In this document: positions 42,001-45,000 of the stretch, piece by piece
Layout: the number at the start of each line of letters is the position of its first letter
Numbering within the stretch: the stretch's first letter is position 1
Sequence record: NC_009514.1
Source: Enterobacteria phage cdtI
Direction: 5' to 3' (one strand)
DNA: 47,021 nucleotides
Made by a program: the position numbers

Positions 42001-45000
42001 ATGCTGGATGTTAAACTTGAAATGGAGTAGAAAAAAGGGCATTTCTGCCCTTTTTAAATGTGGGGGAGTATCCAGTTTACTTTTCTCCATGTAAAGGCAA
42101 AAGTTATTACTGAAATGATAAGAAGAGATAAAGATTCGATAATTAAAATAAATTCTATTTTTTCTCCATGTAACAATGTCTTTTCATTGGCAAACATTGC
42201 TATCAAAGCAATAACGCATGCCGTAATTAAAGATGCACCTGCGATTAATAGATTTACAATAATAACTTGAAGTATGTTGTTGTTTTTTAATGCTTTTATT
42301 ATTCCATTTGAGTTTTCGCTAGCAGCACTAAAAATTGATATTGTGGCTAAAATAAAACCAAATAAAATACCGGATACAGTTGAAATAACCCCGGAGGCTG
42401 TAAGTATGTCAGCATGCCCCATCTGAGGGATATACCTCAGTAGGAACAAGGTGCAAAAAACACTTACAATCAGGTTTCTTAAGTATTTCAATAACATATC
42501 CTATACCTTCTTTTTGCTGATATCGTATTGCTTAAGGTATTCATTGTTATCAATTTTAGCAGAAATCATGGCTTGCAGAACATCACTATCAGTGCCATAA
42601 CCATTAACGGTATATATGTTTTTTTCTGAAATGAGTACCTGATCAAGAAGACTTTGTTCAACGGTATTTTTGGGCTGTGTTACTGCCGCTTTTTTTACAA
42701 TTCCCGGCATTTTTTCAAGGAGTTCTTTAATACCATCCTTAACGAGATCTGATAAATAACCTTTGACTTTTACTCTCCCTGATGCACGTCCCCTTAGATT
42801 TAACTTGAGACGTGTTCCACCCAGCCCTACCATCATATTTACCAGTTCCTTAGAAAATGAACTATTTAGCTGGTAATTTGTTGCATCAAAGTTCCTGGGA
42901 GCAGCCAGGACAATATCACAACTTCTCAAAGTACTTCCTGTTTCAAGTAGCTCTTTGACGCTCTCTTTTTTCCAGATGGCTTGGAATGAAAAGTTATTTC
43001 CAGGATTACCACTCTGGCTGTAAAGCAGATAAGCTAAATCCGATTCTTTCGGCCCAAGATGATTTTGAGTTAATATTAAAATATCACTATCGTAATAATA
43101 TAAAAAATAGGTTCTTTCGACTATGTATTTTTTATCATCTAGTGGTATGTTGTGCTCATTCCAGTGTTCATCACCAATATAAGGAAGGAGATACTCTTCT
43201 CGTGAGCATGACATGTAGCCGAAGAAATATTTAGCTTTTGTATCTTTATTTATAAAAGCTATTTTTAACTTTTTATTTCTATAGATGGTATCAAAATGAT
43301 TATTCGTAACGGTTACGCAAGTATTATACAGATTTTCAATTGCTTGCTTAGCAACTGAATGGCTGCGGATAGTCCCAGAACTGCTGGTGTAAAAACCAAT
43401 TTTAAGTTTTTTTTGTTTCTTTGATTGCGCAATAGTAGCCATGTTAAACCTTAGTATACTAATAATTTCTTATGGATCTTATTTTTTATATGGCTTTAAT
43501 TTAGCAAAAAAAATTACCGCGGTCCGCAAATTTTATCTTAATCTGTTAAGAGTGGTTACTTCGCCACACAGCTTAAACCCGCCGTCGAGCGGTTTTTTGT
43601 ACCTGTAAACCTGGTGCAGTACAGTAAACACGCTGGTGGTCGTGAATACTGACTTTTTATCTTGCTGGCTTTTTAGACAAGAGTTATTGGTATGTCATGT
43701 TAACCAGAAGGGAAAAAGACATGCTAAAACAGCAAGATATGACAGAAACCGCCGCCGCAGTCCTTCATTTCTTACCTGCTGACAAGTGGGTAACGCCACG
43801 CACGATGACGAGAACTACCGGAGTAAGCGAAGCCCGGTGCCAGTTAATACTGACTCAGTTAGTTCTGGCGGGTCTGGCGAAGGATAACGGCGGGTACGGG
43901 AATAAATTCAGACGCTGCCAGTAATGGCGGTTTCCTGCTGTGAAAATGGGCGGCTGGTGGGTGTTGGTAGCACCTGCCAGCCATTCGCTCATGCTTACTG
44001 GTCACAAGCGAACCACGGCCCACTGCTTTAGCGCAAAAGCAGAGTGAGCCTACCAGAGTTACGCTTACTGATCCATGAAAAATACTGTAAAAATAAACAG
44101 TGTTGATTTAATCAACGCTGATTGCCTGCATTTTATTCAGTCCCTGCCTGATGATTCCATTGACCTGATTGTTACCGATCCGCCTTACTTCAAGGTGAAA
44201 CCCAACGGTTGGGACAATCAGTGGAAAGGGGACGAAGATTACCTTAAGTGGCTGGACCACTGTCTGGCCCAGTTCTGGCGGGTGTTGAAACCTGCCGGAA
44301 GCCTTTACCTGTTCTGTGGGCATCGCCTAGCATCTGATATTGAGATCATGATGCGTGAACGTTTCAACGTGCTTAACCATATCATCTGGGCGAAGCCGTC
44401 CGGACGTTGGAATGGGTGTAATAAAGAAAGTCTGCGCGCATATTTTCCTGCCACAGAGCGCGTTCTGTTTGCTGAACATTACCAGGGGCCATATCGCGGC
44501 AAAAGTGACGGCTATGCGGCAAAAGAAAGGGAACTCAAACAGCACATAATGGCACCGCTGATATCGTATTTCAGGGATGCTCGTGCCGAACTGGGTATAA
44601 CGGCAAAACAAATTGCCGAAGCCACAGGTAAGAAAAATATGGTTTCCCACTGGTTTGGTGCCAGTCAGTGGCAGTTGCCGAATGAGGCTGACTATCGGAA
44701 GTTACAGGCACTGTTTTCCCGTATAGCGGCAGAGAAGTTTCAGGAACAACAACTGGAACAACCACACCACCAGCTGGTGGCATCTTATGATTCACTGAAT
44801 CGCAAATATTCTGAATTGCTGGATGAGTTTAAATCTCTCCGGCGCTATTTCTCCGTATCAGTCTCCGTGCCTTATACCGATGTCTGGATGCATAAACCCG
44901 TTCAGTTCTACCCGGGTAAACATCCGTGTGAGAAACCTGCGGATATGCTCCGGCAAATAATCAATGCCAGTAGTCGACCTGGTGATCTGGTTGCTGATTT

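Follow-up and report, generated by a model that had tools for sequence, protein, structure and literature searches.

A two-gene cassette beside the antiterminator gene Q of phage cdtI as a probable RexAB-type exclusion module

The 47,021-nt sequence of Enterobacteria phage cdtI (NC_009514.1; hereafter the window) is that of an entire lambda-like phage, arranged in packaging order, in which terminase, head, tail, integrase, immunity and replication genes are followed by Q and the lysis genes. We analysed a cassette of two minus-strand genes that lies beside Q and encodes a soluble protein of the DUF6731 family and a small protein with four transmembrane (TM) segments (Table 1). An earlier note on this DNA had described the two genes as AT-rich, convergent with Q and separated by a 3-nt spacer, and had likened them to rexA and rexB of phage lambda; open reading frame (ORF) calls and base composition bore out the layout. 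Three nucleotides separate the large-gene stop codon from the small-gene start codon, AAGAAGG stands 5′ of the second ATG, and the GC content across 42050-43550 is 0.29-0.40, compared to 0.50-0.59 upstream and ~0.48-0.52 downstream. RefSeq labels the large gene 'DUF6731 family protein' and the small gene 'hypothetical protein'. The Q protein is 49% identical to K-12 QuuD (BLASTP 3e-39), and the 23 nt separating the converging stop codons of Q and the small gene are occupied by AAAAAAGGGCAtttcTGCCCTTTTT. Folding of this sequence gave -13.0 kcal/mol on the plus strand and -13.4 on the minus strand (z -3.7 and -4.3), with a U-run on each strand, which confirmed the bidirectional terminator proposed at this position. 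An Rfam scan of 41500-44200 returned no match.

Table 1. Features of the cassette and its surroundings (positions in the window)
Feature	Coordinates	Strand	Basis
Large gene, 313 aa, DUF6731, soluble, RexA-like fold as modelled; proposed sensor / DNA-binding partner	42501..43442	-	ORF call
Small gene, 147 aa, four-TM; proposed effector, RexB analogue	42054..42497	-	ORF call, hydropathy, AlphaFold2 model
Q, late-gene antiterminator, PF06530 type	41665..42030	+	Pfam E 4.6e-52; convergent with cassette
Bidirectional intrinsic terminator common to Q (+) and cassette (-)	42031..42056	both	AAAAAAGGGCAtttcTGCCCTTTTT, folding
Cassette-specific AT-rich upstream region	43443..43505	-	Shine-Dalgarno AAGG 43452-43449; region missing from empty-site phages
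Conserved core linked to PF06530 Q type; putative pR′ + Q-utilisation site + tR′	43506..43600	+	Conservation

The large protein passed the Pfam model for DUF6731 (PF20505) with 41.4 bits against a cut-off of 27 (E 1.7e-10, residues 34-260); the same model was matched by 79 of the 86 relatives found with the family profile. The protein belongs to PHROG 7651 and is basic overall (44 K+R vs 33 D+E). DUF6731 is a small family, with 231 clusters at 50% identity among 1.84 billion representatives, and no mention of it was found in the literature searched. Pfam, NCBIfam and PDB-sequence profile searches revealed no recognisable enzymatic or toxin domain, and a profile search with the family over all PDB sequences returned nothing. 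The structural comparison was more informative. An AlphaFold2 model built from a 37-homologue alignment (predicted local distance difference test, pLDDT, 81.7) was compared with the PDB by Foldseek, which ranked lambda RexA (8TWQ) first (E 7.6e-8) and RdgC second. Further matches were to CHL4/CENP-N, RdgC and IML3, which are also the structural relatives reported for lambda RexA (PMC11077077), and the order of secondary-structure elements in the model fits the split globular domain and the four-stranded dimerisation domain of the RexA fold. An hhalign comparison of the 86-sequence DUF6731 profile with a 4-sequence RexA profile gave E 0.004 over 216 in-register collinear columns, with family-invariant motifs, an N-terminal GFY and GPxxSDLxxxL, in alignment. 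As modelled, the large protein has the two-domain RexA/RdgC-type fold, which makes DUF6731 a RexA-fold family that is probably remotely homologous to RexA.

Hydropathy analysis of the small protein located four hydrophobic segments (~8-26, 32-56, 75-102 and 114-136) at positions much as in RexB, and its AlphaFold2 model consisted of four long helices (pLDDT 83.7), in agreement with the four segments described earlier. Hydropathy, the model and the 3-nt spacer taken together show a ~145-aa four-TM protein encoded just 3′ of a RexA-like gene, which is the RexB-type layout. PHROG 8552 is the sole family to which the protein belongs, without a Pfam, NCBIfam or PADLOC family, and the Pfam and PHROG scans gave no match to holin families; one member of its family showed a noise-level match to Hol_Tox and MotA_ExbB. 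Direct BLASTP and hhalign comparisons of both cassette proteins with lambda RexA and RexB produced weak local signals, among them an N-terminal resemblance of the small protein to RexB (BLASTP 31% over 49 aa, E 0.012 in a single comparison). The small protein is thus RexB-like in size, topology and gene position alone, and sequence homology to RexB was undetected.

We next describe how faithfully the two genes travel together. A scan of IMG/VR yielded 80 related viral loci, examined by script, with large proteins 43-100% identical to that of the window. A co-oriented ORF of 145-157 aa lay directly 3′ of the large gene in 79 of the 80; its product was 35-100% identical to the small protein and usually had four hydrophobic segments. 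A convergent PF06530-type Q gene was located 25-50 bp beyond the pair in 73 loci, and the pair stood without Q nearby in seven. The arrangement of pair and Q occurred in E. coli (an allele 44% identical), Pectobacterium (62%), Xenorhabdus (46%) and Citrobacter braakii (99%), and the clade as a whole was found in Escherichia, Citrobacter, Klebsiella, Pectobacterium, Yersinia, Serratia, Xenorhabdus and Vibrio. The pair was also present in a V. cholerae chromosomal island near toxRS, next to the integrase gene in a Vibrio Vinavirales prophage and in further phage regions; a scan of species-representative genomes recovered two loci only. Four alleles were carried by 25, 73, 18 and 11 of 5,426 complete E. 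coli genomes (together ~127, ~2%), and the allele of the window occurred mostly in pig strains of enterotoxigenic E. coli.

A more distant locus connects the family to the canonical rex position. In Pseudomonas phage AUS531phi (L019, 2596-4782), a 22%-identical DUF6731 relative and a TM ORF lie directly 3′ of a CI-like repressor gene, as rexA and rexB follow cI in lambda, and this arrangement supports a RexAB-type reading of the cassette. The AUS531phi TM protein and the small protein of the window have a common S-x-x-S/G-x-L-x-G-F-I-x-A motif. The AUS531phi pair, from a P. aeruginosa phage, shares its repressor-adjacent placement with RexABpp of Pseudomonas putida and may be related to it.

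Comparison of related phages showed that the cassette comes and goes as a unit. The same Q type occurs without a cassette in phages 1720a-02 and PPyecE_EH1910; their homology to the window ends at 42026 and resumes at 43506. E. coli loci whose flanking DNA matches that of the window at 88% and 97% identity have a cassette at the same junctions (42026 and 43513) that shares no DNA similarity and just 44% protein identity with that of the window. Across the 80 loci, cassette identity was uncoupled from Q identity (for example, a cassette of 45% beside a Q of 88%), and all alleles were AT-rich, with a GC content of 0.34-0.42 compared to ~0.5 for the remaining locus. In phage Ayreon, which has a different Q type, homology stops at 41662 and resumes at 43576, and therefore Q, cassette and core were exchanged as one block. 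The cassette behaves as a self-contained two-gene accessory module found in several unrelated mobile-element contexts.

Two loci in IMG/VR (L052, 4001-4774; L051, 4001-4822) held truncated matches to the large gene, in one of them with no intact TM ORF after it, which suggests occasional pseudogenisation of the cassette. The phages vB_EcoS-733R5 (ON470608.1; L020, 3501-4442) and vB_EcoS-716R3 (ON470622.1) have an 87%-identical DUF6731 gene labelled 'portal (connector) protein'. This label is almost certainly a mis-annotation, because the gene sits between Q and a holin gene with a TM gene next to it.

Beyond the cassette, as seen from Q, lies the conserved core. It contains promoter-like hexamers, TTACCG and CTTAAT, separated by 17 nt, GCGGTCCGC, TGTTAAGAGTGGTTACTTCGCCACACAGCTTA and a terminator hairpin with a T-run (43577-43600); a terminator-like site was scored at 43581-43593. 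The core was kept in every locus examined, including those of E. coli, K-12 DLP12 (L022, 5170-5300), Pectobacterium and Xenorhabdus. It lies directly 3′ of Q in the cassette-less phages, and was swapped together with Q in Ayreon; in two loci (L009 and L010) it falls within a 296-bp stretch, the sole intergenic DNA on the way from the cassette to the holin gene. The gap between Q and the cassette is too short to accommodate a promoter. By elimination, and on the model of the lambdoid pR′-qut-tR′ arrangement, in which qut is the Q-utilisation site, we infer a late promoter downstream of the cassette that fires away from it. The element accompanying PF06530-type Q genes from DLP12 to Xenorhabdus comprises GCGGTCCGC, TGTTAAGAGTGGTTACTTCG(C/T)CACACAGCTTA and the terminator hairpin; it looks like the pR′/qut/tR′ of this Q family and appears to be unannotated.

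The cassette would thus lie between Q and pR′, pointing toward Q and away from pR′. The stx genes of Shiga-toxin phages lie downstream of pR′. With its position upstream of the putative pR′, the cassette would therefore be outside the late transcript and not equivalent to the stx slot. The earlier proposals that the cassette stands in the path of late transcription and fills an stx-like slot both found no support, since the core lies downstream of it, empty-site phages join Q to the core, and the cassette points away from the putative pR′. In K-12 DLP12 the same slot holds nmpC, on the strand opposite to the late genes. The first genes past the putative late promoter and terminator in the window are a 67-aa ORF with no Pfam match (43721-43924, plus strand) and a gene for a 350-aa N6/N4 DNA methyltransferase (PF01555; 44075-45127, plus strand), both upstream of the holin gene; these two would be the late-transcribed cargo in the true 'stx-like' position.

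The layout has several likenesses to known two-gene systems. As in lambda RexAB, two co-oriented genes encode a soluble protein of ~280-310 aa first and a four-TM protein of ~145 aa second, and the pair is prophage-encoded, opposite in strand to the lytic genes nearby. Unlike RexAB, the cassette has no match to RexA or RexB sequence models and its TM partner has no detectable homology to RexB; it lies between Q and the putative pR′ with its own terminator, whereas rexAB lies 3′ of cI on the pRM transcript; and it is AT-rich and exchanged as alleles. The cI-like repressor gene of the window (Peptidase_S24, 34560-35234) is 7 kb away from the cassette, and there is no canonical rexAB anywhere in the window. 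The position equivalent to that of rexAB, 3′ of the cI-like gene, is taken by a 197-aa ORF without a Pfam family (33531-34124, minus strand), and the next ORF encodes a DUF2303 protein (32640-33464, minus strand). In Sodalis sp. TME1 (L015, 1754-3444), a RexB homologue (46% identity to the lambda protein) is encoded with no rexA called upstream of it and outside any obvious immunity region, perhaps as an orphan rex locus or a decayed one.

Two further RexAB-type systems were compared here by description. Sucellos (SclA/SclB), encoded in a V. cholerae superintegron cassette, likewise consists of two genes, whose products are described as resembling RexAB in structure while escaping the Rex Pfam models; both genes are needed for defence, a promoter of its own is present, SclB forms a membrane pore in modelling, and its homologues are reported to lie mostly in prophages (bioRxiv 10.1101/2024.07.02.601686). 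Those prophage homologues are described as 'often in Salmonella', whereas the clade studied here ranges from Escherichia to Vibrio. RexABpp of P. putida prophage P1 defends the host, binds DNA and causes RexB-dependent membrane defects (PMC12894663); it lies in the repressor operon, unlike the cassette beside Q. Kiwa (KwaA/KwaB) also joins a four-TM and a soluble protein in anti-phage defence and differs in its opposite gene order and in KwaB being a DUF4868 protein. Neither cassette protein matched a PADLOC model or DUF4868, and Kiwa was rejected, as the earlier note had already done on gene order.

The position of the cassette is shared with nmpC and with the lc porin moron (in DLP12 and phage PA-2, respectively), both of which occupy this slot in the same orientation, converging on a PF06530-type Q gene and preceding the core and the essD-type lysis genes; the cargo differs, nmpC encoding an outer-membrane porin and the cassette a Rex-like pair. 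Among Rex-type systems, rex-like genes lie beside or near the immunity repressor in lambda, P. putida P1 and several actinophages, and in Sbash, Butters and Rubeelu they are inverted, with other genes between them and the repressor (PMC11077077). No Rex-type system beside Q is among those described in PMC11077077 and PMC12894663, the latter of which counts five RexAB-like systems, with Sucellos as a further one. The arrangement, which had been called unusual, is so for a Rex-type system; the slot itself is a classical moron position, that of nmpC, and is the norm for this family. The cassette is most likely another sequence-divergent instance of the RexAB type with a distinctive, conserved placement.

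Taken together, we consider it probable that the cassette, as a prophage moron operon, codes for a two-component exclusion, or abortive-infection, system of the RexAB type. This reading builds on the modelled fold, on the pairing and mobility of the two genes and on their operon structure; the sensing, activation and defence are extrapolated from lambda RexAB, RexABpp (PMC12894663) and Sucellos (bioRxiv 10.1101/2024.07.02.601686), on which the following mechanism was modelled. In a lysogen, the soluble RexA-fold protein, probably a DNA-binding dimer, would sense an infecting phage and then activate its four-TM partner. The partner would oligomerise into a channel or pore that collapses the membrane potential or permeabilises the membrane, and the cell would be arrested before the invader finishes its cycle, so that the infection would be aborted. 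The site between Q and the putative pR′ would tie the cassette genetically to the co-adapted Q/qut pair, which would account for its presence there in 73 of 80 relatives, and because the cassette converges with Q, early transcription reading past Q would be antisense to it in lytic growth. Pairs of a RexA-fold and a four-TM protein that are missed by the Rex Pfam models and yet defend have precedents in Sucellos (bioRxiv 10.1101/2024.07.02.601686) and RexABpp (PMC12894663).

Several results weigh against this reading. The RexA models (PF15969 and PADLOC RexA) gave no match at E <= 1-10 for the large protein or for sets of 37 and 86 relatives, and this negative is meaningful because lambda RexA and RexB do match the PADLOC models (9e-110 and 9e-61, respectively, in the positive control). 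By these searches DUF6731 falls outside the RexA sequence family. The hhalign probability for DUF6731 and RexA was just 8%, and global TM-scores of the large-protein model to RexA were low (0.35-0.39), probably because of domain orientation. The earlier likeness to RexA thus stood at the level of fold, was weak in profile-profile comparison and failed against sequence models. For the small protein, the likeness to RexB stood for size, four-TM layout, gene order and the N-terminal BLASTP signal and did not extend to the profile searches. The RexB models (PF15968 and PADLOC RexB) did not match it, and 11 relatives compared with PF15968 likewise gave no match; when the TM family was aligned by hhalign to a RexB profile of 13 sequences, the probability was 0.8% and the alignment out of register. 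Foldseek of its model against BFVD, a search in which small helical bundles discriminate poorly, found nothing at E <= 0.001 and no RexB, only uncharacterised phage proteins. Upstream of the cassette, a strict consensus scan detected no promoter on the minus strand and a relaxed scan gave candidates only, including a candidate extended -10 element, TGCTAAATT, at 43506-43498, whose TG step at 43506 is just outside the cassette-specific region 43443-43505; the two scans together yielded no confident cassette promoter. Finally, the mechanism cannot be read from the fold alone: lambda RexA acts outside defence too, in the switch between lysis and lysogeny, and phage Butters reverses the parts played by the two proteins (PMC12894663).

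Each of these last two precedents can be turned into an alternative. The pair might mainly serve the phage's own development, tuning the passage from lysogeny to lysis or the late promoter, with exclusion as a by-product. Lambda RexA binds DNA non-specifically, favours the lytic state independently of RexB and biases the CI/Cro switch (PMC11077077), the cassette starts ~65 bp from the Q-linked core and diverges from it, and the tie to one Q type is conserved across genera. We nevertheless regard this as unlikely, given that same-Q phages function without the cassette, that the pair occurs without Q nearby in seven of the 80 loci, in the Vibrio island and in the Vinavirales prophage, that alleles are swapped independently of Q, and that RexApp left its repressor promoter unaffected (PMC12894663). 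A related and similarly unlikely proposal makes the cassette an integral, co-evolving part of Q-qut late control. Confinement between Q and the site on which Q acts would protect it from loss by recombination; the antisense read-through would silence it when the prophage itself turns lytic (self-immunity); and the RexA-like protein, made ~65 bp from the late promoter, might modulate Q-dependent late transcription. If true, defence and the decision to lyse would be linked, which has not been described for a Rex system.

Under Butters-type logic, the soluble RexA-like protein would be the toxic effector and the membrane protein would sequester or neutralise it until infection, as described for mycobacteriophage Butters gp30/gp31 (PMC12894663). 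The tight translational coupling through the 3-nt spacer would also suit such a toxin/antidote pair. This is improbable, however, since the membrane protein is the effector, shown or modelled, in four of the five Rex-type systems of PMC12894663 and in Sucellos (bioRxiv 10.1101/2024.07.02.601686), and the searches described above found no enzymatic or toxin domain in the large protein. The porin gene in the DLP12 slot, the proximity of the lysis genes and the noise-level Hol_Tox and MotA_ExbB match would fit a membrane moron with a soluble chaperone or regulator, acting in superinfection exclusion, lysis timing, a holin-like function or host fitness (lysogenic conversion) like nmpC. Such a moron, equally improbable, leaves the RexA fold match and the strict pairing unexplained; moreover, the cassette is opposite to the late operon and would be outside the late transcript, and no holin family was matched. 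It is least probable, and in our view very much so, that the large protein is an RdgC-like modulator of recombination or replication with an unrelated TM gene as its neighbour: RdgC ranked second in the Foldseek search, yet Pfam RdgC was not matched, and in 79 of 80 loci the TM gene accompanies the large one at a distance of 3 nt or similar. Among these explanations we favour the RexAB-type exclusion system.

On this favoured reading, the cassette provides a structural and functional lead for DUF6731, an uncharacterised Pfam family, and, if separate from Sucellos and RexApp, would be a sixth or seventh lineage, unrelated in sequence, among the few RexAB-type systems. It is missed by current defence annotation, as PADLOC reports nothing, RefSeq names the genes 'DUF6731' and 'hypothetical', and two phages have the 'portal protein' label. 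The picture of the slot is also corrected, to one upstream of the putative late promoter rather than the stx position. What Rex-type sensors recognise is a question standing since the rII work. With its empty sites and its highly diverged alleles joined at the same positions, the fixed site between Q and the putative pR′ supplies a natural series of alleles with which recognition by a Rex-type sensor could be addressed.

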